Positions 10,760-57,484 are shown, counted from the whole stretch's first letter. The stretch: 63,173 nucleotides of DNA, filler included, from Deltaproteobacteria bacterium (GCA_016202395.1; 4 parts of 4 records of this genome joined end to end with filler, not necessarily neighbours in it); one strand, 5' to 3'. The notes: generated by a model not told the origin, from the letters alone. Numbers and translations are program-made.

Positions 10760-12514
10760 TTAGGCCTCAAGGAAACTTCGAAGTTGACGGCTTCGGCTGG
10801 GATGACGAAGTTTCCTCAAAGCCTTGGCCTCAATCTGTCGAATTCGCTCCCGCGTCACATCAAAATCTCGCCCCACCTCTTCTAACGTATGATCCGACTT
10901 CTCTCCAATCCCAAATCGCATTCTTAAAACCTTCTCTTCCCGAGGAGTCAATGTCGCCAATACTTTTCGTGTTTGATCTGCAAGGTTCAAACCGATCACC
11001 GTCTCCGACGGAGGAATCACTTTCTTGTCCTCAATAAAATCTCCCAAATGGCTGTCCTCTTCCTCTCCAATCGGCGTTTCCAAAGAGATCGGCTCCTTGG
11101 CGATCTTCAAAAACCTTCGCACCTTGTCCAGAGGAAGCTCCATCTTCTCCGCAATCTCCTCCGGCAGTGGCTCTCGACCAATCTCCTGAACCAGATAACG
11201 CGATGTCCGAATTAATTTATTGATGGTCTCGATCATATGAACCGGAATTCGGATCGTCCTTGCCTGATCTGCAATAGCTCGAGTGATCGCTTGGCGTATC
11301 CACCATGTGGCGTAGGTGGAAAATTTATAGCCCCGCTGGTACTCAAATTTATCCACGGCCTTCATGAGCCCAATATTGCCCTCCTGAATAAGATCCAAAA
11401 ACTGCAGTCCTCGATTGGTATACTTCTTAGCAATGCTCACCACCAAACGCAAATTGGCTTCAATCAACTCCGCTTTCGCCTGATGCGCTTTTTCTTCCCC
11501 CTCTTCAATCTCCTTCAAAGTGGCGTGAAGAGAGTCTACGGATAATACCGCCTCCTTTTCAACTTGCCGAATCTTGCGATAGGAAGCCCGAATCTTCCTT
11601 TCGTATTCCTCCAGTGTGTCAAAATCCTTCCCCAGAATCTTGCGAACTCGAAGCGACTCGCGCTTGCTCCTTTTAGCCCTCCGGAAAAATTCCTTTACCT
11701 CGCCCACACTTTTTCCCAACTCGTTCTCAAACTCCTCCAATCGTCTTTCCTCTTGATCAAGAGAGCGGACTAGATTCTTAACACAAGTGGTAATCTGTAG
11801 AATGTATTTGTCTTGAAGGCCTAAAGCCCGAAAGGAGGCCATCCGTTCTTCTTCTACCCGGACTAATGTTATGCTTAACTGGGATCGTTTTGTGGAAGAA
11901 AGCCTCTTGGAAATCAGCTGCCCAAGCAATCCCTGACGCTCTTTTTCGAGGCGTTTGATTTTAGCAATAGTCTCACGAACGCGATTCACGTAGATCTCCT
12001 CCACCCCACCCGATTCTCCCGCATCGGACTCCTCTTCCTCAATATCTTTCACTACATCCTTTAAACGAACCTCCCCTTTGACCAAACGATCCCCTAACAA
12101 AAGAATCTCTCGAACCGTTAGAGGACAGTTTAAAATGGCGCGGGCCACCTCGTTATAACCTCCTTCAATCCTCTTAGCAATCTCGACTTCCCCTCCTCGG
12201 GTGAGGAGCGACACCGCCCCCATCTCTCGAAGATACATGCGAACGGGATCGTTGGTTTTCCCGATGATCGAATCCCGGTCTTGCCCCTCTTCCATCTCCA
12301 AATTTGGAGAAACCTGCTTTGGGATTTTAATCTTCTGATCCGAATAGACCACATCCCCTTCCACATCTCCAAACACCGTCATCACATCGTCGATCTGATC
12401 TGAAGAAATGGCATCTCCCGGAAGGATACCGCTGATCTCTTCAAAGGTGAGATATCCTTTTTCTTTATGGGGGACCTCCGGACGACTCTCTTTCTTCTCT
12501 TTTCCTTCAAGCAT
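10760..12514 (-). CDS. rpoD: Primary RNA polymerase sigma factor RpoD
   Basis: [54 protein letters not shown]; in rpsU-dnaG-rpoD operon. Confidence 0.97.
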
Positions 12515-27910: not shown

Positions 27911-27926
27911 TGCAAAAAGGATGCCA
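27911..27926 (-). promoter_or_regulatory. Sigma-54 -24/-12 promoter of lipoprotein A
   Basis: TGGCATCCTTTTTGCA (GG-N10-GC) on the minus strand. Confidence 0.85.
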
Positions 27927-32478: not shown

Positions 32479-32494
32479 TGCAAAACACATGCCA
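32479..32494 (-). promoter_or_regulatory. Sigma-54 -24/-12 promoter of lipoprotein B
   Basis: TGGCATGTGTTTTGCA. Confidence 0.85.
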
Positions 32495-32640: not shown

Positions 32641-33696
32641 GGGGTCAGTTTTAAGTTTTTAAGTAAAATTTTATGCACCTCAGGCAACAAACGGCCTTCT
32701 AGGATCGATAGTAAGGTATGGCAAGAAAACCTCGACTCCATTTCCCGAGCGCCCTTTACCATGTGATATCCCGTGGAAACCAGCGCCAGCCAATTTTCTT
32801 AGATACCGAAGACCACAAGCATTTCCTCGCTCGATTCCAGCATTATCATCAAAAATTCCCTTTTCATCTTTACGCCTACGTTCTGATGCCAAACCATTTT
32901 CACTGCCTGATCCAAGTGGAAAACGTTCCCCTTGGAAAAATCCTCCAACCCCTTCTACTTTCATACACCTACTACTTCAACCACAAATATGAGAAGGTCG
33001 GGCACCTCTTCCAAGGCCGGTTCAAGGCGATCCTCTGTGATCAAGAGGTCTACCTCTTGGAGTTGATTCGATACATCCATTTGAATCCCATCCGAGCGAA
33101 GATGGCGCAGCGAGTAGAGGATTATCCATGGAGTAGCCACCCGGTTTACTTGGGGTTAAGACATGAACCCTGGGTTGAAACTCCAAGGGTCCTGGCTCAA
33201 TTTTCCTCTCACCTACAAACCGCACGGAACAAACTTGCAGAATTTATCGCGGATGGGGCGGGCGGCGATCCCCCATGGAATCCCCCAATGATGAAGGGAC
33301 AACCCCTTCTGGGAGATGCGAATTTTAGCGAGAAGGTGTATCAAACCACTCAAGAACGGGATCCCTGTTATTGGGATCTCGATTTAGAGTGGATCGAAAA
33401 ACATGTTTGTCGAATGCTTCAGATCGACGCCGAGGCGCTCCAGACCCCATACCGAACCGCCAAAGAGGCGGGGGCACGGGCAATCATCGCTTACCTATGG
33501 AAAAGATTGGCCGGTGGAACATTAACAGAGTTAAGCCAACGCTATGATAGAAAACCTGCCACCTTTACCCAGGCGATCGAGCGGGTGGAACATTGGAAAA
33601 GAGAGGATCCACACTTCTGGCAGCGGGTTGCTGCACTAGAAAAGGAGATCACCATCCACAAGCGGAAAAGATACTTAAATACTTAAAACTGACCCC
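32641..33696 (+). mobile_element. RAYT/Y1 transposase element bounded by 25-bp inverted repeats
   Basis: GGGGTCAGTTTTAAGTTTTTAAGTA (32641-32665) and TACTTAAATACTTAAAACTGACCCC (33672-33696), one mismatch. Confidence 0.85.
32718..33686 (+). CDS. REP-associated tyrosine transposase (Y1 HUH) with C-terminal DnaA-like HTH
   Basis: YHVISRGN, YVLMPNHFH (HUH), GHLFQGRF, RYIHLNP, YPWSS; stop codon lies inside the right IR. Confidence 0.92.
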   Translation: MARKPRLHFPSALYHVISRGNQRQPIFLDTEDHKHFLARFQHYHQKFPFHLYAYVLMPNHFHCLIQVENVPLGKILQPLLLSYTYYFNHKYEKVGHLFQGRFKAILCDQEVYLLELIRYIHLNPIRAKMAQRVEDYPWSSHPVYLGLRHEPWVETPRVLAQFSSHLQTARNKLAEFIADGAGGDPPWNPPMMKGQPLLGDANFSEKVYQTTQERDPCYWDLDLEWIEKHVCRMLQIDAEALQTPYRTAKEAGARAIIAYLWKRLAGGTLTELSQRYDRKPATFTQAIERVEHWKREDPHFWQRVAALEKEITIHKRKRYLNT

Positions 33697-37370: not shown

Positions 37371-37386
37371 TGCAAAAGGCATGCCA
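37371..37386 (-). promoter_or_regulatory. Sigma-54 -24/-12 promoter of lipoprotein C
   Basis: TGGCATGCCTTTTGCA. Confidence 0.85.
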
Positions 37387-45250: not shown

Positions 45251-45266
45251 TGCAAAAGTCATGCCA
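45251..45266 (-). promoter_or_regulatory. Sigma-54 -24/-12 promoter
   Basis: TGGCATGACTTTTGCA. Confidence 0.85.
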
Positions 45267-45411: not shown

Positions 45412-48363
45412 TTGTTAAAAAGATATCCGCGCCTCTCCTTTCGAGGAATTCTCTTGGCCCTGCTTGGGTTAGGGGTCTTTCTCTACCTCCTCCTTTTTTA
45501 CAGCTCTTTACACCGAATCCCCGATTTCGGCTTCACCTTAAATGTGGAACGCAGAGTGATTTTCATAGAGCCCAAGGGGGTTGCAGATCACATGGGCCTT
45601 CAGGTGGGGGATCAGATCACTCGAATCGGCAGTGACTCCATCGAAAGCTACTTCGGACTCTTGAAAACCTTAAAAAAGGCCCGTTTCATTGAAGAGGAGA
45701 TAACGCTTGAAGCGATTCGCGATGGATCTTTTTTTACATGGGAGGTCCCTCTCCCTCCTCAGAGGCTCCCCAAGTATTCTGGAATAGGGCTTGTCGAAGG
45801 TTTTCTGACCCTTTTTTTGGGAGTGATCGTTCTTCTCAAAAGACCTCGGAATCGAGGAGTGACCCTCTTTTACTTGATGACCCTTTCGTCGGCCATTACC
45901 ATCGTGGGAGCGGTGGGAGGGATTCACTTTTTGGACAATCTTTTATTGTCTCGCATTTGGGCCCTGGCTGGCACTTTAACCTTTCCCTTCATCCTCCACT
46001 TTGTTCTGACATTTCCAAAAGAGATAGAATTCGTAGCCAAAAGGCGCTACCTTTACCCTTTCATCTACCTTCTCTCTATCATCCAAGCGCCCACGTATCT
46101 TTACCTTTATCAAAAATTTCTCAACGCCGCCGCCATGGGCGGCAACGATCTTTTTTATGCGCAAAAAATCGTGGCCTTCTCCCTATGGATTCTCATCCCT
46201 TGGACGCTCTATTGGATCTTCTGCTCCCTCACCCTTTGGATCCGGTATCTGCGAACCGCATCGTTTCTCGAGAGAAAACAGCTCCAATGGATGTTAGCGG
46301 GGGGAATCCTTGCTATGTGGTTTCCTTTCGTCGCCTGGATCCACATTAAAAACTATGGGCTCACTTCCTACTTCTATTTTGGGCTTCCTCCCTCGATGAT
46401 CGCGGAGTATCTCATGATCTCGCTGGCCATTGTTCCCGCCGTTTTTAAATATCGATTGATGGACGTCGACTTTCTGATCTCTCGAGGAATCATTTATCTG
46501 ATCGTGAGCACCATCGCTCTCCTCCTCTATCTAACCCTTGTCGCCTTTTTGAGTCATGGATTGGGAGAGATCATGGAAAATCCCTCCCCCTGGACTTACA
46601 TCGGAGCCACTCTGGCGATCGCCATTGTAGTTTCCCCCATCGAGAAAGGGATACGGCAGTTGATCGACCGAAAATTCTACCGGGATCAGCATCGCTATCG
46701 GCAAGCCATCCAGGAATTCGGAGAAAAAATCCTTACATTCCATACCTACGACCCACTCTTTGAAGCCATTGCCGAAACTCTCAAAAAAGCCCTCCCGATC
46801 TCACAGGTGGCGATCTATGTCCACCCCTTGGAAGAGACCTTGCCCGTTGCCTTTCAACGAGTCTATCCCCATCCACTCCCTGCAAACACGCTGGTGTCAG
46901 ATCTTCTGATTCCAAGCCTTCTGGTGGAAGGGAAGAGGCCCCTGATTCGTTATCAAATTGAGAATGACCCTCGTTCTCCGCAGGAATGGAAAGAAACGAT
47001 CTTAGACCGCATGCAAAAATTAGAAGCGGAAGTCATACTCCCTCTCCTTTACAATAAGGAGCTGTTAGGATGGATCGCGCTCGGAGAAAAAAGTTTTAAC
47101 GATTTGTACTCCTCGAAGGAGATGGAGGCCCTCACGACCCTTGCCAATGAAGCCGCAATCGCTTTGCAAAATGCGAGCGCCTATGAGGCTCTGCAAAAAT
47201 CTCATCAGACGATCGAAAACCTCAACCAAAATCTTCGAGAAAAGGTAGGAAAAATCGAGTCGCAACAACAACAAATTCTGATCCTGCAAGAAAAACTCCT
47301 CAAAGAAAACATTTACCTCAAACAAGAACTCCATGAACAATTTAATTTCGAGGAGATTGTGGGGTCCTCGAGCGTGATGCGAGGAGTTTTAAAGAAGGTC
47401 GAAAAAGTGGCCGCCACCTCCTCTGTCGTTTTAATCCGAGGAGAGAATGGAACAGGGAAGGAACTGATCGCTCGAGCGATTCACTTCAATAGCCCTCGCA
47501 AAGATAAACCTTTCATCCGCGTGAATTGCGCCGCCCTCCCTCACGGGACGCTGGAAAGTGAGCTGTTCGGCCATGAACGAGGGGCCTTCACTGGAGCCTT
47601 TATGCGAAAAGAAGGAAGGTTCGAGCTGGCCGATGGTGGCACCTTATTCCTGGATGAGATTGGGGATATTCCCCTCGACACGCAGGTGCGGCTCTTGCGC
47701 GTTCTTCAAGAAAAAGAATTTGAGCGCGTGGGAGGAACGAAAACACTTCGTGTGGATGTTCGCATGATTGCCGCAACTCATCAGAGTTTGGAGCGATTAA
47801 TTCAAGAGGGAAGATTCCGCGAGGATCTCTTTTATCGGCTCAACGTGATTTCGATCGATATCCCCCCTCTCCGAGAAAGGCGAGAAGACCTCTATCCTTT
47901 GGTTCTCCATTTTATGAAAAAATACAATAGAGAAACGGGGAAGAATGCTTGCCGCATCGAGGATACGGCTCTCGATTATCTGCGCGGATATCGTTGGCCT
48001 GGAAACGTGCGGGAGCTCGAAAATCTCATTGAGAGAGCCATCGTTTTGGGAGAAGGCGAGATCCTTAAGGAAGAAGATTTTATCCGATATTTGAGCCAGG
48101 GAACGGGAAGGAAGAAAACAGACCTTCCGACCCATGCCCAAAACAGCGAACTCTCTTTGGAGGATCAGATGAGAAACGTCGAGAAGGGATTGGTTGAGGA
48201 GGCTTGGCAACGCTCCGGCGGAAACAAAACCAAAGCGGCTGAGCTTTTGGGTCTCAACCGCACCACTTTTCTTTACAAACTTAAAACCCTGGGGATCGAG
48301 GAACTTGCCCAAACGGCCGCTCCCCGAACCCCTTACTCTCCCACAAAAACCCCCTCCGCTTAA
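45412..48363 (+). CDS. Membrane-anchored sigma-54 enhancer-binding protein (PDZ + multi-TM + GAF + AAA+ + Fis HTH)
   Basis: [11 protein letters not shown] motif; many TM helices; [67 protein letters not shown]. Confidence 0.92.
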
Positions 48364-48896: not shown

Positions 48897-48912
48897 TGCA
48901 AAAAATATGCCA
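48897..48912 (-). promoter_or_regulatory. Sigma-54 -24/-12 promoter
   Basis: TGGCATATTTTTTGCA. Confidence 0.85.
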
Positions 48913-49098: not shown

Positions 49099-49767
49099 CT
49101 AATAAAAACGGACGAGATAGCGAGGTGGGACACCGGCAAGGTAAAGAAGACGAAGTCCCCACATGAGAAGATGGGTTTTAAAATAGCCGCGCTCCAACCA
49201 GCGGCGCGGGGAGATCCGGATGGGGGAATCGATCACAGCAACCCGACCGATCTTTTTCATCCGGCGCATCAGATCAAGATCCTCAAAAAGTGGAATGTTG
49301 GCGTATCCACCGAGCCTCTCAAAAATCCCTTTTCGAACAAAGATCCCTTGATCGCCAGTGGCTCCACCGGTTCTGTTGGCCCGAAGATTGAGCAAAGTCG
49401 AGGACAATCTAAAACGAAAATCGGGATGATCCAGATGAGCTTGGAAAAAACCTCCCACGGTTCGTGAATCCTCTAACGCTTTCTGAATGAGCTTGGAAGT
49501 TTTAGAAGGCAATCGACAATCGACATGAAGAAAAAGCAGGATATCTTCTGAAGCCGCCTCCGCGCCAGCATTCATCTGCTGAGATCTCCCTTTTGAAGCA
49601 TGCACACACCGAACCCGAGGAAAAAGCGCGATCCTCTGGAGTGTGGTATCCGAGCTTCCTCCATCGGCCACAATCACCTCGACGGCATCGCTCAACGCAA
49701 GAGCCGATTGCAAACAGCCCTCGATCTCACGCTCTTCATTCAAAGTGGGGATAACGACGCTAACCAC
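49099..49767 (-). CDS. GT2 glycosyltransferase, TIGR04283-like (arsenosugar-cluster associated)
   Basis: SVVIPTLNEE, ADGGSSD, GRSQQMNAGA, FLHVD, GDQGIFV, PLFED, SPRRW. Confidence 0.88.
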   Translation of the reverse strand: MVSVVIPTLNEEREIEGCLQSALALSDAVEVIVADGGSSDTTLQRIALFPRVRCVHASKGRSQQMNAGAEAASEDILLFLHVDCRLPSKTSKLIQKALEDSRTVGGFFQAHLDHPDFRFRLSSTLLNLRANRTGGATGDQGIFVRKGIFERLGGYANIPLFEDLDLMRRMKKIGRVAVIDSPIRISPRRWLERGYFKTHLLMWGLRLLYLAGVPPRYLVRFY

Positions 49768-50950
49768 GATGAAATAAATCCACCTCTTCTTGTTCTTGGG
49801 GCGGCGGTGTAGTAAAGGCCTCTCTCCCTTTGTCTCCAAAAACACCCTTCTCCTGGAGTTGGATCCCATGGCGACCAAAAAATTCATGAAACCGGTCCCA
49901 CTCTTTTTGAAGCTGGGCCTTCATAGAAGCGTAGCCATAGTCGAGCAGCTCCGCGCGGGCTTGAAACGTCATGGGGTTTTTGAGAAACATCGGCGCCTCG
50001 AGCCGGCTCGGCTCATGGAGGACGATCTTCACATCAGGATATTTGGATTGAAAATAACCCAATCCCAGGTGGAGTTTGTCATGCAGATTGATTCGGGCCG
50101 ATTGGTTGAAAATGGAAACGAGGCCGCGATCGATAATTCGCGCGCAATGTCCATCGCGCAGGGGAATGCAGACGCGAGAACGATCGTTATAAATCGGAAC
50201 CAAAGGATTGATCACCAAAACTGAGGAGGCCCCTTTTGCGATGGCAATATCGATATTCCCAATCTGCTTCACAGCCCCATCGACAAAATCATGCTCTTGG
50301 ATCCGATAGGGCTGAAAGAAGATCGGGATGGCACTGGAAGCGGCAACGGCCTGAGAAATAGGGATCTCATCCAATCCCTCATCGCCAAAAACCCAGCGCT
50401 CTCCGGTGTCCAGTTCTGTTGCGGGAATATAAAGCTCGCGTTTCAATTGGCGGAAATCATTGGCCCTCCCTTCCGCCGAAAGAATCCTCCGAATGTAGGC
50501 CTCCAGATGATCGAGGCGAAAGATTCCGGAGGGGAGCTTCTCTTCGACCAGATCCAAAACGCTCTCAGCCGAGATCTTTCCGCGAGCATGGCCTCGCGCA
50601 TGGCCTCGATCATAGATTTTTCTAAAAGGATAGAGAGAAAGGGCTTGCAGTGTAGACCAAATGGTGCGAAACAAAAACTTGTAGTTAGGGCGATAGACAT
50701 CCTCTCGCTGAAAATTCAGGAGATCCTTTGCCCCCTCCATCATGGCCTTGACAGCAATCTCTGGGTGAATCCCATTAGCAAGAAAAGAGGCGACCACCGA
50801 CCCCGCGCTTGTTCCCACATAGAGATCGAAGTGGTTAACAGAGCCGGTCTCCCCAAAGGCATCGTCAAGGGCTCGAAGGGAACCGAGCTCATAAACCGCC
50901 CCTGTGATGCCACCACCGGCAAGCACCAATGCGAGTTTTTTTCTTTCCAC
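49760..50950 (-). CDS. Patatin-like phospholipase
   Basis: LAGGGITG, GTSAG nucleophile, ASSAIP, DGA; GTG overlaps the upstream TAG. Confidence 0.9.
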   Translation of the reverse strand: MERKKLALVLAGGGITGAVYELGSLRALDDAFGETGSVNHFDLYVGTSAGSVVASFLANGIHPEIAVKAMMEGAKDLLNFQREDVYRPNYKFLFRTIWSTLQALSLYPFRKIYDRGHARGHARGKISAESVLDLVEEKLPSGIFRLDHLEAYIRRILSAEGRANDFRQLKRELYIPATELDTGERWVFGDEGLDEIPISQAVAASSAIPIFFQPYRIQEHDFVDGAVKQIGNIDIAIAKGASSVLVINPLVPIYNDRSRVCIPLRDGHCARIIDRGLVSIFNQSARINLHDKLHLGLGYFQSKYPDVKIVLHEPSRLEAPMFLKNPMTFQARAELLDYGYASMKAQLQKEWDRFHEFFGRHGIQLQEKGVFGDKGREAFTTPPPQEQEEVDLFHRG

Positions 50951-53445
50951 TAACAACACCCTCCACCGGGAGTACAACACCCCTCGGAGTTGATCTCTGT
51001 AATTTTCTTTGTCGGATCGGTCACTGTGAAAACCGTTTTATACGGAGCGGCGCTCAACTTGGCTGCCGTATCGGTACAAACCTCTACCGGCACATGGCGC
51101 GGGAAGAGGTGCCCCTCCTCATCCATCACCGCCGTGAAAGGGCCATGATAAATTACTCTTTGACCGATGTAAACACATCCTTTTTTCTTTTCGTATTTGT
51201 ATCCCCGCACCGTCACCGAGTAGAAAGGATAGCCTTCAACCTCTTTCCAATAACTCTTCTGCAAAACCTCGATTCCATAGAACCCCGCCTGCTCGAGAAA
51301 AGAAAACAGCTCCCCCTCGGTGAGAGCTCCTGCTAAACATTCCCCCCAAAGATGTTCGTTCACGCGGAGGTGAAGAGGAACCTCCTCCTCACACACGATG
51401 TCGGAGATCACAAATCGGCCGTGATCTTTCAAGATCCGCCAGATTTCGGCGAACACCGCTTTTTTGTCGGGAGAAAGATTAATCACGCAGTTGGAAGTGA
51501 CACAATCGATCGCTTGATCCGAGAGAGGGATTTTTTCAAGAAAGCCTTTGCGAAACTCCATCCCATCATAACCGAGCGCTTGCGCCACCCGCGGTCTGTT
51601 TTTATTCGCCACCTTCAACATCTCATCGGTCATATCGATTCCAAAGACCTTTCCTCTGGAGCCCACCTTCTTCGCAGCGATAAAGCAATCAATCCCTCCC
51701 CCTGAGCCAAGATCGGCATACGTCTCCCCCTCTTTCAATCCGGTTAATGAAACGGGAGAACCGCAACCATAGAATCGATCCAACACCTCTTTTGGAATAT
51801 GCAAAGTGTCTTCGGCGGGGTAGTTTGTTGGGCAACAGAGATCGGCTTGAGGGATCTGGGCAGCCTTTCCATAAAAGGATTGCACCACTTTGTGAGGCCT
51901 CTCCACATCGAACGAGAGAACGCAATTGGAATGAACGGTTTGCACCTCGCGATCCACGGAGACCGCCCCCTCTTCGATGCCACACGCCATGGCCCCTTCC
52001 CCCATCGCATGAAAAAAGAGAGGGGGGTTGTAGCCCGACAGGCCATTGAAAATCTCTTTGCGGCGCTTCGCGAGCTCCACCATCACCTCCTCAGCCATCG
52101 CGGCATAAACGGGGTAATAGGGATCCTCGGCGAGAAAATTCCCCTCCCCTTCCATCGGCTCGCCATAGAAATAGGAATGTTCGATGTCGCCACCCCCAGT
52201 CAAAAAGTGGAGCCCATCGCCATTAAGCCCTCTTTTCTGAATGAGCGAAATTTGCCGAATCTTTTGCGCAATAGCGCTCTCTTTCCACACCTTTTCGATC
52301 CCATCCTGCAACGCATCGCCTAAGACAAGAGGAGGATGCCCCGCCAATGCGGCCGAAGGGTAGAGTTTCCCATCGGAATAAAGACAGAGGCTCTCCCAAC
52401 AGGCATTGCTCAAATCAAATCGGGTCCCGCGCGGAGCATTGATCCGTTGCTGAATCGATGCATAGTTATCGAACAAAACCCCAACTTGATCGGCCCCTTT
52501 TTTGACCTCACGACACAGCGCTATCAACGCTTGAACTGTTGGAAACTGATCCCTGCATCTCTCCATGGCCCGACCCCGCCGATGCATCCACATCAAATGG
52601 ACGGAACGAGCGCCGCAGCGGGCCGCTAACTCGGGCAGCTGTTCCAACTCTTTAAGATTACTTTGGGTGACAACGGCGGTGAGGGAGGTGGTAAAACCCA
52701 GAGCGGTTATTTTCTGGGTTCCCTCTAAGATTTTTTCAAACGTGCCATCTCCTCGAAGGCGATCGTTGGCGCTGGAGGTGGTCCCGTCCAAACTCACCTG
52801 AAGAAAAAGTCTCTCTCGATCGCAAGCATCGAGCTTTTTGAGGCGCTCCTCCGAAAATAGGGTCGCGTTGGTGAGGATGATCAACTCGGAGGCCTTCAGG
52901 CGCGTGACCTCTTCGACGAGATCAAAGATCTCCTTTCGAGCCAAAGGCTCGCCCCCCGTAAAATAGAAACGTCGAGCCCCTAGCGAGTAAGCCTCATCGA
53001 GGAGCCTCCTTAAATCTTTCATCGGGAGGCCACGATCCCCGTGGGGAGAAGAACCCACCAGGCAATGAGAGCAACTTAGGTTGCAGAAATTGTGCACGTG
53101 CACCCAAAATTCGCGTAGCTGCGACAACTGAAGATAACGCTCTCGTCCCAGATAACCATTCTCTGGGAACGGAGAAGACCCCGCGATTCGATGTCGCAAC
53201 GCCTCGCTCACAAAGGTGTGAACATGAAACCAAGATTTCGGAGAATCTTCGTTCCATCGCTCGGAATATTTTCTAAGGATCGAGCCGAAAGGGATGCGCT
53301 CTTGCAAACAGGAGAGAATAAAGGCCCCTCGATCATCGGTAGCAACCCAATTGGGGGTATTGGCGTCAATAAAAAATTCAATCCCTTCTCTCGTAAAATG
53401 TCGCAGCTTTGGGGTGTGTAAAACTGTGTTCTCACGAAGCTCCAT
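50950..53445 (-). CDS. Radical SAM - arsenite methyltransferase (ArsM-like) fusion
   Basis: CNLSCSHC, FTGGEP, VSLDG; C-terminal LCCP, YGCGSP, DLGSGGG, SNCVINL, WGECLAGA; terminal CCTPGGGCC. Confidence 0.88.
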   Translation of the reverse strand: MELRENTVLHTPKLRHFTREGIEFFIDANTPNWVATDDRGAFILSCLQERIPFGSILRKYSERWNEDSPKSWFHVHTFVSEALRHRIAGSSPFPENGYLGRERYLQLSQLREFWVHVHNFCNLSCSHCLVGSSPHGDRGLPMKDLRRLLDEAYSLGARRFYFTGGEPLARKEIFDLVEEVTRLKASELIILTNATLFSEERLKKLDACDRERLFLQVSLDGTTSSANDRLRGDGTFEKILEGTQKITALGFTTSLTAVVTQSNLKELEQLPELAARCGARSVHLMWMHRRGRAMERCRDQFPTVQALIALCREVKKGADQVGVLFDNYASIQQRINAPRGTRFDLSNACWESLCLYSDGKLYPSAALAGHPPLVLGDALQDGIEKVWKESAIAQKIRQISLIQKRGLNGDGLHFLTGGGDIEHSYFYGEPMEGEGNFLAEDPYYPVYAAMAEEVMVELAKRRKEIFNGLSGYNPPLFFHAMGEGAMACGIEEGAVSVDREVQTVHSNCVLSFDVERPHKVVQSFYGKAAQIPQADLCCPTNYPAEDTLHIPKEVLDRFYGCGSPVSLTGLKEGETYADLGSGGGIDCFIAAKKVGSRGKVFGIDMTDEMLKVANKNRPRVAQALGYDGMEFRKGFLEKIPLSDQAIDCVTSNCVINLSPDKKAVFAEIWRILKDHGRFVISDIVCEEEVPLHLRVNEHLWGECLAGALTEGELFSFLEQAGFYGIEVLQKSYWKEVEGYPFYSVTVRGYKYEKKKGCVYIGQRVIYHGPFTAVMDEEGHLFPRHVPVEVCTDTAAKLSAAPYKTVFTVTDPTKKITEINSEGCCTPGGGCC

Positions 53446-54112
53446 GACATTCTCCTTTTATATTCTGTAAATAAACACGCAGTTTTTCTTGATAACGTGT
53501 CCTTTCATGAAGGTTTTCTAAATCCTGCCAGGCCAGCGTCAAATCCTCGGGACGATCAATATCATACCATTCCGGCAACAGTTGGTAAGACCATCCCAGC
53601 GATTTCAGATGGGCAACCGTCTCGGATAGGACCGAGGATTGACTCCAAGAGATCCCCTGAAAAATTTTGCGATCGATCCGCCGCAGTCCGAGGGTGTAGT
53701 AGCCTCCATCGCGAGTGGGACCTAAAACACAATCGTACTGTTTTATGAGTTGGATCCCCTGCCGAAGAAATTCCGTCGGAAGGGTCGGGGCGTCGGAGCC
53801 GAGGATAAAAACGGGCCCCTCCTTTTCTTGGAAAAGGGTAGCGAAGGTATGCCACATCCGCTCACCGAGATCCCCTGAAGTTTGTGTACGAAAAGATCGA
53901 TGTGGAAACAACGCCTCGAGATAGTTTTGATCCTCCTCTCCAAAGGTCCAGATCTGAGAGTGAACCGCGCCCAAGGACTCCACCTGCTCCACAACCGTTT
54001 GCAGGGAGAGTTGATAGACCTCAGCGGCCTCCGCGGGATGAAGCACGGGGAAGAGTCGGGTTTTGACTTGCCCAGGCCGAGGAGCTTTGACATAAATGAC
54101 CATGACCACCAT
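53432..54112 (-). CDS. DUF2064 / TIGR04282-like transferase (arsenosugar-cluster associated)
   Basis: KAPRPGQVKTRL, GDLGERM, GSDAP, GPTRDGGYY, DIDRPED. Confidence 0.9.
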   Translation of the reverse strand: MVVMVIYVKAPRPGQVKTRLFPVLHPAEAAEVYQLSLQTVVEQVESLGAVHSQIWTFGEEDQNYLEALFPHRSFRTQTSGDLGERMWHTFATLFQEKEGPVFILGSDAPTLPTEFLRQGIQLIKQYDCVLGPTRDGGYYTLGLRRIDRKIFQGISWSQSSVLSETVAHLKSLGWSYQLLPEWYDIDRPEDLTLAWQDLENLHERTRYQEKLRVYLQNIKGECHGAS

Positions 54113-54918: not shown

Positions 54919-55164
54919 ATGGGACAAATCGCTATCTATCTTAGTTCGTCTTTGCAGGAATTGCTCGATCAAGCCGCTCAAGAGGATGGGGTGAGCCGTT
55001 CCGCCTGGGTTCAAGAGGCGGTTGAAGAGAAACTCGCCCACAAATCCTTTGGTGAGGATTGGTTTCAACTCTGGGGATCGTGGGAGGATAAGAGATCGGT
55101 TTCAGAGATATTAAAAGATCTGGATCAGGGCTACCTGGAAAAAGAGAGAACCCCGATTCAATGA
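54919..55164 (+). CDS. Ribbon-helix-helix antitoxin (VapB-like)
   Basis: IAIYL..LDQAA..GVSRSAWVQEAV; ATGA overlap with the PIN toxin. Confidence 0.8.
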   Translation: MGQIAIYLSSSLQELLDQAAQEDGVSRSAWVQEAVEEKLAHKSFGEDWFQLWGSWEDKRSVSEILKDLDQGYLEKERTPIQ

Positions 55165-55565
55165 GATATATTCTGGATACCGATATTTGCATTTACATCC
55201 TCAACGATGCGGCGCCTCAGCTCCGTTCTTATTTTGAGAAGTGGGGTCCCGACCAAATCTGCATTAGCACTCTTACAGAGGCAGAACTTTATTACGGCGC
55301 GCTTCACTCTTCAAAGCCTAAAAAGAATCAGGAAAAAATTCAAAAATTCGTAATGCCGTTTCCCAGAATTCCTTTTGATTCTTCCGCTGCCTTTGAGTTC
55401 GCGGCCGTGAAGGAAGAACTCACACGGAAAGGTCGGCCGATCGGAGCCGTAGATATGTTGATTGGAGCGATCGCGAAAGCTCATGGCCTGATTCTTGTTT
55501 CCAATAATATAAAGCATTTCAAGCTGATTACTGGACTTAAAGTGGAAAATTGGCTTGAAGAGTAG
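55161..55565 (+). CDS. vapC: VapC PIN-domain toxin
   Basis: YILDTDICI, AELYYG, GRPIG..DMLIGAIA, LVSNN..HF. Confidence 0.92.
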   Translation: MRYILDTDICIYILNDAAPQLRSYFEKWGPDQICISTLTEAELYYGALHSSKPKKNQEKIQKFVMPFPRIPFDSSAAFEFAAVKEELTRKGRPIGAVDMLIGAIAKAHGLILVSNNIKHFKLITGLKVENWLEE

Positions 55566-55596: not shown

Positions 55597-55707
55597 TTAT
55601 GGGAATAGGATTACGGAGGGCTCCATTCGGGCGTTTGGAAGTTTCTATGTTTCGTGGTATCCTCAAGTAAGAAAGTAGGAAATTGTAGGAAAATAGGAGT
55701 AAGCCTT

Positions 55708-55953
55708 ATGATGACACGAATGAGAGAAAAGGGCCAGGTGACGATCCCTTTGGATATCCGGGAGTCATTGCGTTTGGCGAAGGATTCTCTACTATCCGTT
55801 GCCAAGGTGGGGGATGGAATTTTCTTGACTCCTGAGCCATCGGTTTTTGAATCCGTCTCGGGAAAATTTTCGAAAACTGCTGAAGAAAAAGGGATCACTT
55901 TGGAACGTCTGCTCAAGGATTTGAAAAAAATCCGACATCACAAAGAATCCTAA
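55708..55953 (+). CDS. AbrB/MazE/SpoVT-family antitoxin
   Basis: EKGQVTIPLDIRESL; TAATG overlap with the PIN gene. Confidence 0.85.
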   Translation: MMTRMREKGQVTIPLDIRESLRLAKDSLLSVAKVGDGIFLTPEPSVFESVSGKFSKTAEEKGITLERLLKDLKKIRHHKES

Positions 55954-56405
55954 TGGCCATTCCTCCCTATCGTCTCTTTTTTGACACGAGCGTCTATATC
56001 GCTGCTTTGCTCTTGCCGAGTGGCGCGGCAGGGGAGCTTGTGCGTTTAGCCGAGGCGGGCGCTATTCGGATGATTGTTTCAGAAAAAGTGATTACCGAGG
56101 CAGATAGAGTGTTGGCCACAAAATTTCCAGAGCTTATTCAGGAAAGTCGTAAACTCTGGAAGCGCTTAAGCCCTGAGATGGCCCCCGATCCGGTCGCTAG
56201 CCAAATGAAGCCGTTTTTAGAGAAATTACTGCAAGGTGACGCCTCAATTCTTTGCGCCGCTCATCTAGCCAAACCTATGGCGTTTGTGACATGGAATACC
56301 CGTGATTTCATGACCCGTGGTGTGGCCTCTTTGGTTGATTTCCCAATCGTTGTGCCAGCAGATGGCCTTACACTTTTCAGAAAGTGGATCGGACATTTTC
56401 TGTAG
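55953..56405 (+). CDS. PIN-domain toxin
   Basis: LFFDTSVYIAA, DASILCAA, FVTWNTRDF. Confidence 0.85.
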   Translation: MAIPPYRLFFDTSVYIAALLLPSGAAGELVRLAEAGAIRMIVSEKVITEADRVLATKFPELIQESRKLWKRLSPEMAPDPVASQMKPFLEKLLQGDASILCAAHLAKPMAFVTWNTRDFMTRGVASLVDFPIVVPADGLTLFRKWIGHFL

Positions 56406-56431: not shown

Positions 56432-57484
56432 TTAATTATATCCGTGTGTGTACCAATATGAAACCGGTTGGGAAATTGCTGCACCCAAAACGTTGTTTAG
56501 CTGGGCATGAACATCAACCCAATGTTGATGCGCTTCTAATTGCCCTGATCCGTACCACTCCGATAACTGAGCGGTTAGGTCTGCCTGAAGTTTCATAACA
56601 AAACCACCCACTTCTGTTTTTGGAATTTTTGTTTCTGCCCCATACAGCCTGCGTGCAGCTCTTTGAATGGAAGATCTTAAGCCCTCATCCTTCGTAAAAG
56701 CTTGAGCAATTGCATCTTCTAACCGCTGCATACCTGATTCTCCTTCTGCCCGCACTGACCGAAGAAGCAGGTCGGTGCGAACAGGTTCAAAGGCCCGTGC
56801 TCCTGCAGCCGGGGCTCGGCTCAACAGAATCGATTTTTCACCTGTTGCGACCATTGTGGGCGCTCCCCTCGAAACATAGAAGGCTGCCGCTATTACGAAT
56901 ACGGCAGCATATTTATACCCGTCGGGCAACTCGTCGATCTTTTTAGTCAAGGGGTAGTTCGCCACAGCGTCCAGTCCATCGAAATAAGCCTCCAAAGCCA
57001 TACCCACGTAATCATCCAATGCATAAGCCCGTTGGAGCGCTTTTTGCTGCACTTTTCGAGTTTCAGGATCTACTTCATAATCGATGGTTTTATTAAATCC
57101 CCCTGTGGGATCGATATAGCGGAGCGGATTGTTTCGAGCATATCCATACCGATGAAGCTGTTGGGGATCGTGGAGATAAGCCGATGGACCGATCGGATCG
57201 CTCGAGATAAACCGTGCCACAGTCAGGTCGGCATACCGCGCTTCGTAATAGTAAAGATCGCTCGATTCGTCGCTTTCCTGGCCGGTAAAAAGAAAAAGGG
57301 TCGCTGCCGATCCGCTCCTAGATTCGCCAAAGGGCTCGTACTGAATTGCCTGCGCAACAGCGCCGTCCCCTCTCGTTACGATAGAAGCCGAACCTACGGC
57401 ATCGAGATGGGTATAATCAACCCCTGCCTGCGAAACACCGAACATGAGAAAAGAAACCAGAAAGAGAAACACCGTTCTGCCCAT
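56432..57484 (-). CDS. Signal-peptide mini-Rhs protein (Rhs-associated core + unknown C-terminal domain)
   Basis: YEPFGE, FTGQE, LYYYEARY, RFISSDPIG, YGYARNNPLRYIDPTG. Confidence 0.85.
   Translation of the reverse strand: MGRTVFLFLVSFLMFGVSQAGVDYTHLDAVGSASIVTRGDGAVAQAIQYEPFGESRSGSAATLFLFTGQESDESSDLYYYEARYADLTVARFISSDPIGPSAYLHDPQQLHRYGYARNNPLRYIDPTGGFNKTIDYEVDPETRKVQQKALQRAYALDDYVGMALEAYFDGLDAVANYPLTKKIDELPDGYKYAAVFVIAAAFYVSRGAPTMVATGEKSILLSRAPAAGARAFEPVRTDLLLRSVRAEGESGMQRLEDAIAQAFTKDEGLRSSIQRAARRLYGAETKIPKTEVGGFVMKLQADLTAQLSEWYGSGQLEAHQHWVDVHAQLNNVLGAAISQPVSYWYTHGYN

Follow-up and report, generated by a model that had tools for sequence, protein, structure and literature searches.

Arsenosugar-type pathways that combine the As(III) methyltransferase ArsM, the radical S-adenosylmethionine (SAM) enzyme ArsS, and two accessory protein families named by NCBI are already known. 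Both accessory families (TIGR04282 and TIGR04283) carry the NCBIfam name 'arsenosugar biosynthesis glycosyltransferase' – a name based on gene neighborhood – and a literature search on these accessions found no paper that assayed either of them in arsenosugar formation. In the available portions of two sources, ArsS is described as placing a 5′-deoxyadenosyl group on arsenic, with adenine being removed afterwards (10.64898/2026.04.29.721666; PMC12159101). The available portion of the second source, a 2025 review, gives ArsS and ArsL as the only radical SAM enzymes that make carbon-arsenic bonds (PMC12159101). Here, we describe a four-gene operon from a Deltaproteobacteria bacterium in which a radical SAM enzyme and an ArsM-type methyltransferase are joined in one protein and a patatin-like phospholipase gene is embedded. 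The operon lies within a window of 63,173 nucleotides, which is the whole stretch of DNA that was analyzed. Our preferred reading, to which we assign a probability of roughly 0.55, is that the operon makes a ribose-type (arsenosugar-like) organoarsenical, with the fusion performing both of the arsenic-carbon chemistries that are otherwise split between ArsM and ArsS. A search of the full-text literature, with subscription journals outside its reach, did not turn up any account of a radical SAM-ArsM fusion, of its non-ArsS radical SAM lineage, or of the embedded patatin.

The operon is encoded on the minus strand. In order of transcription, its genes encode a 226-amino acid (aa) TIGR04282-family protein (53432..54112) belonging to the DUF2064, CofC-like nucleotidyltransferase fold family; the 831-aa radical SAM-ArsM fusion (50950..53445), in which RRE-like, radical SAM, cysteine-poor SPASM-like, and ArsM-type domains are followed by a cysteine-rich tail; the patatin (49760..50950); and a TIGR04283-family glycosyltransferase of family 2 (GT2; 49099..49767). 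Reading the junctions base by base, we found that the TIGR04282 and fusion genes overlap by 14 nt. The TAG stop of the fusion gene and the GTG start of the patatin gene at 50950 have a G in common, with a GGAGG sequence 9 nt upstream, and the patatin TAG stop (49760-49762) is overlapped by the GTG start of the TIGR04283 gene at 49767, an overlap of 8 nt. From these starts the patatin is 396 aa and the TIGR04283 protein 222 aa, which equal the lengths stored in the protein database for the window's own proteins; open reading frame (ORF) calling had given uncorrected extents of 49760-50980 and 49099-49887. A divergent KhpA-type gene lies 5′ of the operon, and a 230-nt AT-rich gap lies 3′ of it, followed by a lipoprotein-like ORF that has a separate sigma-54-type promoter match (48897-48912). 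Because of the divergent gene upstream and the AT-rich gap and separately promoted ORF downstream, we define the operon as exactly four genes, and these genes (54112..49099) form one translationally coupled operon. The sequence-only reading of this DNA had proposed four overlapping, coupled genes of these same families, and ORF, NCBIfam, and Pfam results agree with it, with only the patatin and TIGR04283 starts needing correction.

The first and last proteins of the operon both qualify as members of the accessory families. TIGR04282 scored 188.8 bits on the first protein (cut-off 134; profile positions 2-189 of 189), which also matched Pfam DUF2064 (106.3 bits) and CofC (30.3 bits). TIGR04283 scored 234.7 bits on the last (cut-off 182; profile positions 1-221 of 221), which also matched PF00535 (71.2 bits).

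The C-terminal part of the fusion (residues ~515-831; 50953..51903, minus strand) was assigned as an ArsM-type methyltransferase domain from matches to the NCBIfam models PRK11873 and NF038099, from PDB matches, and from its cysteines. Consistent with what had been noticed from the sequence alone, the translation contains LCCP (residues 536-539), YGCG (559-562), SNCV (651-654), GECL (701-704), and a CC..CC tail (GCCTPGGGCC). C537 and C538 of LCCP, C561, C653, C703, two tail cysteines, C488, and C508 are invariant in 26/26 aligned fusions. The four As(III)-binding cysteine positions of ArsM/AS3MT are thereby kept – the first being assigned by motif and spacing only – and we take their equivalents in CmArsM to be C44, C72, C174, and C224. 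When compared to PDB sequences, the C-terminal 316 residues matched CrArsM (5evj, E = 4.9e-37) and CmArsM (4fr0, E = 1.5e-36), and the 5evj alignment spans YGCG, SNCV, and GECL and enters the ArsM C-terminal domain. We propose that this half of the fusion binds and methylates As(III).

The N-terminal half belongs to the radical SAM superfamily. Its core (residues ~110-300; 52546..53118, minus strand) matched PF04055 with 79.7 bits (gathering score 29.5) over residues 117-270, and the CxxxCxxC cysteines (C121-x3-C125-x2-C128) are invariant in 26/26 and in 31/31 aligned sequences. To place this half structurally, we used an AlphaFold2 model of residues 1-510, built from a multiple sequence alignment of 31 window and locus sequences (predicted local distance difference test (pLDDT) 90.9; predicted template modeling score (pTM) 0.90); a model of the full-length fusion reached pLDDT 79.4 and pTM 0.81. 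The 1-510 model opens with three strands followed by three helices (residues 14-84, pLDDT ~89-96), continues with the radical SAM barrel, and ends in a hairpin-plus-helices domain. Foldseek searches against PDB returned the peptide maturases SuiB, SkfB, CteB, anSME, ChlB, and TigE as top matches (E values from 2.6e-17 to 2.6e-12), with SuiB at E = 2.6e-17 and CteB at template modeling scores of 0.62 by query and 0.73 by target. SuiB, CteB, and TigE possess an RRE-type N-terminal domain, and RRE-like domains normally bind peptide. The domains of the model and the Foldseek ranking of maturases together indicate an architecture of RRE-like, radical SAM, and SPASM-like domains, the first of these being a putative RRE/PqqD-like winged helix (53194..53406, minus strand). 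At the sequence level, Pfam PqqD matches five of 31 family members and Pfam SPASM 24 of 31, the window copy being among neither set; the SPASM matches in these 24 relatives imply that the third domain is homologous to SPASM.

This SPASM-like domain (residues ~340-465; 52051..52428, minus strand), defined by fold and cysteine census, has lost the cysteines of the SPASM auxiliary [4Fe-4S] cluster and so falls outside the SPASM/twitch cysteine definition. It carries instead an invariant GGGD-x-[ED]-H motif at residues 417-423. Beyond the radical SAM triad, the conserved cysteines of the N-terminal half are C508 (31/31), C488 (26/31), and C354 (19/31), and C354 is the only one of them inside the SPASM-like domain. 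We conclude that the N-terminal half has the modeled fold of RRE-radical SAM-SPASM peptide maturases, with a degenerate SPASM-like part.

The sequence-only reading had drawn on ArsS as the known radical SAM enzyme of the pathway, but the window's radical SAM half is no relative of ArsS. The ArsS model TIGR04167 scored 63.5 bits on the whole protein and 64.6 bits on the N-terminal half (cut-off 300), covering only profile positions 3-151 of 303, and DUF3641 (PF12345) gave no match in the fusion at E≤0.01. By comparison, true ArsS proteins from two of the loci described below reached 432.8 (L051) and 415.1 bits (L024) with TIGR04167, and PF12345 scored 188.6 bits in L051 and 183.9 bits in L065. 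The best NCBIfam matches of the N-terminal half were SPASM-type enzymes (the Rv1681 family, NirJ2, and MftC), all far under their cut-offs; its best PDB sequence matches were BlsE, PqqE, and SkfB; and an ESM Atlas search again returned only 'radical SAM/SPASM'.

The fusion is widespread. Searching a 5.8-billion-protein set (E≤0.001, 8000 candidates scored), we obtained 1852 matches, the best 120 of which are 799-885 aa long and 52-100% identical over 94-100% of the query. The proposal that methylation and radical SAM chemistry are fused here stands, in one conserved protein. Where sources name the best 120, the labels are generic – mostly 'methyltransferase domain-containing protein' and domain-level labels from the Joint Genome Institute (JGI), with 'hypothetical protein' twice – and one homologue is labeled '7,8-dihydro-6-hydroxymethylpterin dimethyltransferase'. 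Members of the family come from Nitrospirota, Nitrospinota, Acidobacteriota, Gemmatimonadota, Planctomycetota, and Thermodesulfobacteriota and, by source names, from Elusimicrobia and Omnitrophica.

Using a profile of the radical SAM half, we retrieved 3899 representatives (E≤1e-30). Among the 150 best listed, we scanned 22 with Pfam and six of these with NCBIfam, and observed several architectures. One is the ~830-aa fusion. Another is a ~950-1080-aa form with a C-terminal DUF5714 (198 bits in the representative P0367). A third has the reverse order, ArsM-radical SAM-SPASM, and retains a Pfam SPASM match (P0417, P0418, and P0432). A fourth consists of lower-scoring stand-alone radical SAM-SPASM proteins of ~450-500 aa, some with a Pfam PqqD match; the N-terminal half of the fusion seems to derive from stock of this kind. 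We also identified a triple fusion of radical SAM, ArsM, and TIGR04283 domains (P0370), in which the TIGR04283 match (134.8 bits) covers profile positions 1-141 of 221 before the protein stops.

Variants of the fusion were also seen among the loci surveyed below. Thermodesulfobacteriota and relatives (L037, L030-L033, L035, L040, and L041) carry a long form of 963-1125 aa, the 963-aa copy reaching the end of its locus; the copy from Hydrosulfovibrio ferrireducens (L037:7833-11108) is 1091 aa with a C-terminal DUF5714 of 204 bits. The fusion is split into two ORFs in L007:7473-10421, L021:7956-10488, and L034:2366-5102, which could reflect frameshifts, assembly errors, or real splits.

To gain insight into the genomic context of the fusion, we collected loci from a species-representative genome set, which yielded at least 600 pattern matches, at least 589 of them confirmed, and kept the best 80. 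All ORFs of at least 70 aa in these loci were searched by blastp with the window proteins and with accessory proteins from the loci. A locus was counted as a fusion locus if the radical SAM half matched at E<1e-30, which gave 38; L036, in which the copy is truncated at the contig end, is outside this count. At E≤1e-10, TIGR04282, TIGR04283, and DUF547 genes are each found in seven of the 38 loci, a MerA-like flavoprotein disulfide reductase in eight, and a VTT/DedA membrane protein in five. At E≤1e-5 the counts are eight for TIGR04282/TIGR04283 and ten for VTT. At least one accessory gene is present in 18/38 loci, and TIGR04282, TIGR04283, or DUF547 in 10/38. In L020 and L021 a fused TIGR04283-TIGR04282 gene adjoins the radical SAM-ArsM fusion gene. 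We also observed a PHO4 phosphate transporter gene adjacent to the fusion or in its vicinity in 9/38 loci at E≤1e-10 (L002, L006, L011, L013, L016, L017, L018, L022, and L027; ten at E≤1e-5), which might connect the fusion to arsenate uptake or to phosphate limitation.

None of the 38 fusion loci has an ArsS match at E≤1e-10. Six non-fusion loci (L051, L065, L024, L039, L044, and L046) instead have an ArsS-like gene, 45-56% identical to the ArsS of L051 or L065, beside a stand-alone ArsM; L051 and L024, the two of these that were scanned, are both above the ArsS cut-off. One of the six is L051:1993-9011, from a Marinamargulisbacteria single-cell genome, in which eight compactly arranged genes encode a VTT/DedA protein, a MerA-like reductase, ArsS, DUF547, TIGR04283, TIGR04282, an MTAP-like phosphorylase (328 bits, cut-off 306), and ArsM. 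The accessory genes common to L051 and the fusion loci imply that this set goes with either ArsS plus ArsM or the fusion, and never with both in the loci seen. Together with the scores of the two window proteins above curated cut-offs, this bears out the earlier suggestion that TIGR04282 and TIGR04283 accompany the pathway.

We next compared ArsM cores across the fusion, ArsS-adjacent, and other ArsM proteins. In a maximum-likelihood tree of 81 cores, with no rows dropped, 40 fusion and six ArsS-adjacent rows fall on one side of a branch and 35 other ArsMs on the opposite side (Shimodaira-Hasegawa-like approximate likelihood ratio test, 89). The ArsS-adjacent ArsM of L024 is placed among the fusions.

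The conservation of the ArsM cysteines (26/26) and of the radical SAM triad (31/31), the accessory set in common with L051, and the triple fusion with TIGR04283 all support the preferred reading, and the fusion most likely substitutes for ArsM plus ArsS in an arsenosugar-type pathway. From the gene structure, domain families, conserved residues, and neighborhoods observed above, we infer each chemical step, which radical is transferred, in what order methylation and radical addition occur, and the parts played by TIGR04282, TIGR04283, and, if any, the patatin. As(III) would be bound on the conserved cysteines of the ArsM half and methylated with SAM. The radical SAM half would then reductively cleave a further SAM and transfer a SAM-derived carbon radical, most likely 5′-deoxyadenosyl as in ArsS, onto the methylated arsenic. 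Adenine would be taken off by a housekeeping enzyme encoded outside the operon; the MTAP-like gene of L051 suggests removal by phosphorolysis with an MTAP-type phosphorylase, giving a ribose-1-phosphate and so a sugar-1-phosphate for TIGR04282. This nucleotidyltransferase-like protein would activate the arsenoribose sugar phosphate, and the GT2 protein TIGR04283 would pass the arsenoribose to an acceptor. The patatin could either work on a glycerolipid that serves as acceptor or product, or be a passenger without a part in the pathway.

Several points weigh against this pathway. The radical SAM half stays under the cut-off of the ArsS model and has no DUF3641, and its sequence indicates neither which radical would be made nor that arsenic would be the substrate. 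Its RRE-like domain, of a type that normally binds peptide, has no role in the proposed steps. The enzyme that would remove adenine is not in the operon, and an MTAP-like gene was seen only in L051, against 0/38 fusion loci (E≤1e-10). Both halves of the fusion remain under the cut-offs of all curated NCBIfam models: on the C-terminal 316 residues, PRK11873 scores 233.6 bits (cut-off 263) and the arsenosugar ArsM model NF038099 (AsSugarArsM) 171.1 bits over positions 4-321 of 321 (cut-off 400). The ArsS-adjacent ArsMs of L051 and L024 also score under both cut-offs (190.7 and 252.9 bits with PRK11873; 105.5 and 178.3 bits with NF038099). The loci are the 80 best matches rather than a random sample; 20/38 fusion loci have no accessory gene in their available flanks, and flanks of at least 3 kb on both sides are available in only 18/38. 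Finally, the ArsM tree comes from a quick search, is midpoint-rooted, has a key branch at 89 rather than at least 95, and contains only six ArsS-adjacent rows.

The patatin is a further distinguishing feature of the operon. It matched PF01734 with 102.5 bits (gathering score 27.7), and its translation contains GGGITG (the oxyanion GGG), GTSAG (GxSxG), and DGA, in line with the intact GxSxG/DGx pair previously noticed; by these motifs it is predicted to be catalytically intact. Named NCBIfam patatin models are far from reached (CapV, 56.3 bits against 200; RssA, 19 bits against 272). The family is broad, with 2504 matches of ~365-480 aa from many phyla that are mostly 39-46% identical to the window protein and, where sources name them, are called only RssA, NTE, or patatin-like. 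Its nearest homologues are P0122 (70%) and P0123 (69%), the next being at most 46% identical. P0122 and the nearest TIGR04283 homologue (P0242, 82%) are both on JGI contigs of 7139 bp, and P0123, the TIGR04283 homologue P0244 (62%), and the nearest-but-one fusion homologue P0003 (76%) are all on Logan contigs of 29351 bp. The equal sizes and sources of these contigs are indirect evidence that a patatin-bearing operon is kept in near relatives, which suggests that the arrangement has lasted over appreciable divergence, probably in two close relatives of the window only.

Conservation of the patatin as a member of the cluster was rejected for the fusion loci: both blastp and a profile of 120 homologues showed it to be absent in 38/38, and the only other patatin match in the loci is a 104-aa ORF 5.5 kb away in L007. 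The sequence-only reading had taken the patatin to point to an arsenolipid route and had itself counted absence of the patatin from most homologous clusters against that reading; as proposed, the arsenolipid route is not supported. We propose that the patatin is a lineage-specific insertion. Its link to arsenolipids, an idea drawn from the patatin alone, is speculative, and we rate action on a glycerolipid acceptor or product and a passenger role as about equally likely. Our literature search found no paper that names genes for converting arsenosugars to arsenosugar phospholipids.

These observations leave room for other readings of the operon. A reading that we place a little short of even odds holds that the product is a water-soluble methylated or sugar-type arsenical, made solely for detoxification, with the patatin being an ordinary membrane-lipid hydrolase that was inserted in this lineage and is unrelated to arsenic. 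The absence of the patatin from every fusion locus fits this view, as do the breadth of its family, its generic names, and its spread over many phyla; against it, the patatin gene shows translational coupling to both of its neighbors, and its nearest homologues sit on contigs of the same size and source as the nearest TIGR04283 homologues and, for the Logan contigs, as a fusion homologue too. We also considered a far bolder extension, which we regard as improbable: that the N-terminal half is a third, independent type of radical SAM enzyme forming carbon-arsenic bonds, neither ArsS nor ArsL, drawn from peptide-maturase stock and combined in cis with ArsM into a self-contained organoarsenical synthase, and that in this lineage the coupled patatin connects that product with membrane lipids. 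In such a lipid route, TIGR04283 would set arsenoribose on the head-group glycerol of phosphatidylglycerol to give an arsenosugar phospholipid, which the patatin would deacylate or re-acylate.

The identity of the product and of the substrate can likewise be questioned. The fusion could make another organoarsenical, for example by transferring a 3-amino-3-carboxypropyl group as ArsL does to give an arsinothricin-like compound, or by transferring another alkyl group, with TIGR04282 and TIGR04283 decorating the product or serving elsewhere. We judge this unlikely, though not negligible. ArsS identity is rejected for the radical SAM half, and ArsL, itself a CxxxCxxC radical SAM enzyme, is described as using another SAM bond on arsenic and then handing over to ArsM. 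The ArsM half scores higher on the arsinothricin ArsM model NF040538 (217.9 bits) than on the arsenosugar model, but both scores are far under their cut-offs (500 for NF040538). The 20 fusion loci with no arsenosugar accessory gene in view also fit such a product. On the other side, where accessory genes recur they belong to the set of the ArsS cluster L051, one protein carries TIGR04283 as the third part of a fusion, and the 25 top-ranked of 51 NCBIfam matches to the radical SAM half include no family named after ArsL, as judged by family names without direct comparison to an ArsL sequence. Far less probable still, in our estimation, is that the fusion is a maturase of ribosomally synthesized and post-translationally modified peptides (RiPP-type) joined to a methyltransferase, with no action on arsenic and with TIGR04282 and TIGR04283 linked through another pathway. 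The best structural matches, the RRE-like domain, and the nearest unfused relatives, which are PqqD-radical SAM-SPASM proteins, all speak for a maturase. Yet the SPASM cluster cysteines are gone, the methyltransferase retains its ArsM C-terminal domain and each of the four cysteine positions for As(III) binding, the ArsM core groups with ArsS-linked ArsMs in the tree, and neighboring genes include PHO4 and the accessory set of the ArsS cluster; the tightly overlapping operon also leaves no space for a precursor-peptide gene, though small ORFs of the other loci were not systematically searched.

If the fusion does replace ArsM plus ArsS, surveys that count arsM and arsS genes would misjudge which soil, groundwater, and sediment bacteria make complex organoarsenicals. 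Because the relevant activities would reside in one clonable gene, the role of the fusion is testable. The patatin link, if real, would point to genes for the conversion of arsenosugars to arsenosugar phospholipids.

A motif scan found no sigma-54 promoter upstream of the operon, its matches sitting elsewhere in the window; promoter and terminator scans returned nothing decisive at the operon ends; and an Rfam scan of the window found one tRNA only, with no riboswitch ahead of the operon. As the sequence-only reading had stated, arsR, arsB, acr3, and arsC-type families are absent among the scanned window ORFs (21 by Pfam, 40 by NCBIfam), although ORFs shorter than ~80-90 aa were mostly unscanned and a small ArsR could escape. 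The window otherwise encodes housekeeping functions: rpoD, dnaG, the his operon, murA, prfA, ffh, and trmD.

We made several side observations elsewhere in the window. Five minus-strand sites (27911-27926, 32479-32494, 37371-37386, 45251-45266, and 48897-48912) share the sequence TGGCAT-N5-TTTGCA, one mismatch from the sigma-54 consensus. Four of them lie just upstream of minus-strand ORFs and one (27911) just inside a listed 5′ end; the ORFs behind them encode large family-less proteins (1067, 1434, 1204, and 914 aa) and the 170-aa lipoprotein-like protein. A sigma-54 activator with 7TM (seven-transmembrane) and GAF domains is encoded at 45412-48363. The placement of the five sites is striking, though the window has 28 sigma-54 matches at up to two mismatches against 23.8 expected, which is not above chance. 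Two RpoD-type sigma-70 genes lie within 12 kb on the minus strand (226-1953 and 10760-12514); with a cut-off of 555 bits, the second scores 693.5 and the first 527.6. On the plus strand, 54919-55565 and 55654-56405 are small-ORF and PIN-domain pairs resembling toxin-antitoxin systems, after which comes a protein with an RHS-repeat-associated core domain (56432-57484, minus strand). At 32718-33686 (plus strand), a REP-associated tyrosine transposase (IS200-like) domain is joined to a DnaA C-terminal helix-turn-helix domain.

Comparison with characterized proteins clarifies what is shared and what is distinct at this locus. The patatin has PF01734, the GGG motif, the GxSxG serine, and the DG[A/G] aspartate in common with patatin-like phospholipases of the RssA/NTE type and with CapV of cyclic oligonucleotide-based antiphage signaling systems (CBASS). 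Unlike these, it is far under the named models, has no cyclic-nucleotide signaling genes nearby, and sits inside an arsenic-type operon. The first 510 residues of the fusion share the modeled three-domain fold of the RRE-radical SAM-SPASM maturases SuiB (5v1s), CteB (5why), SkfB (6efn), and TigE (8vpo), to which they are only 11-20% identical. The fusion differs from these maturases in lacking auxiliary-cluster cysteines, in carrying GGGD-x-[ED]-H, in being attached to ArsM, and in having no precursor gene in its operon.

The ArsL plus ArsM arsinothricin pathway of Burkholderia gladioli (arsQML), so far as the available portion of its description goes, resembles the window operon in pairing a CxxxCxxC radical SAM enzyme, which there makes a carbon-arsenic bond, with an ArsM (PMC8552651). 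In that pathway, however, the two are separate proteins and sugar-type transferases are missing; the fusion was compared with ArsL by family names only. Relative to the ArsM plus ArsS arsenosugar pathway of cyanobacteria and others, the radical SAM half of the window fusion is of another lineage – RRE-like plus SPASM-like, with no DUF3641 – and is fused to the ArsM N-terminus, and the window operon has an added patatin and lacks DUF547, the reductase, and VTT. What the two have in common is a four-cysteine ArsM-type methyltransferase plus a radical SAM enzyme and both transferases above their cut-offs, and the DUF547, MerA-like reductase, and VTT/DedA genes of the ArsS pathway recur near the fusion in other loci.

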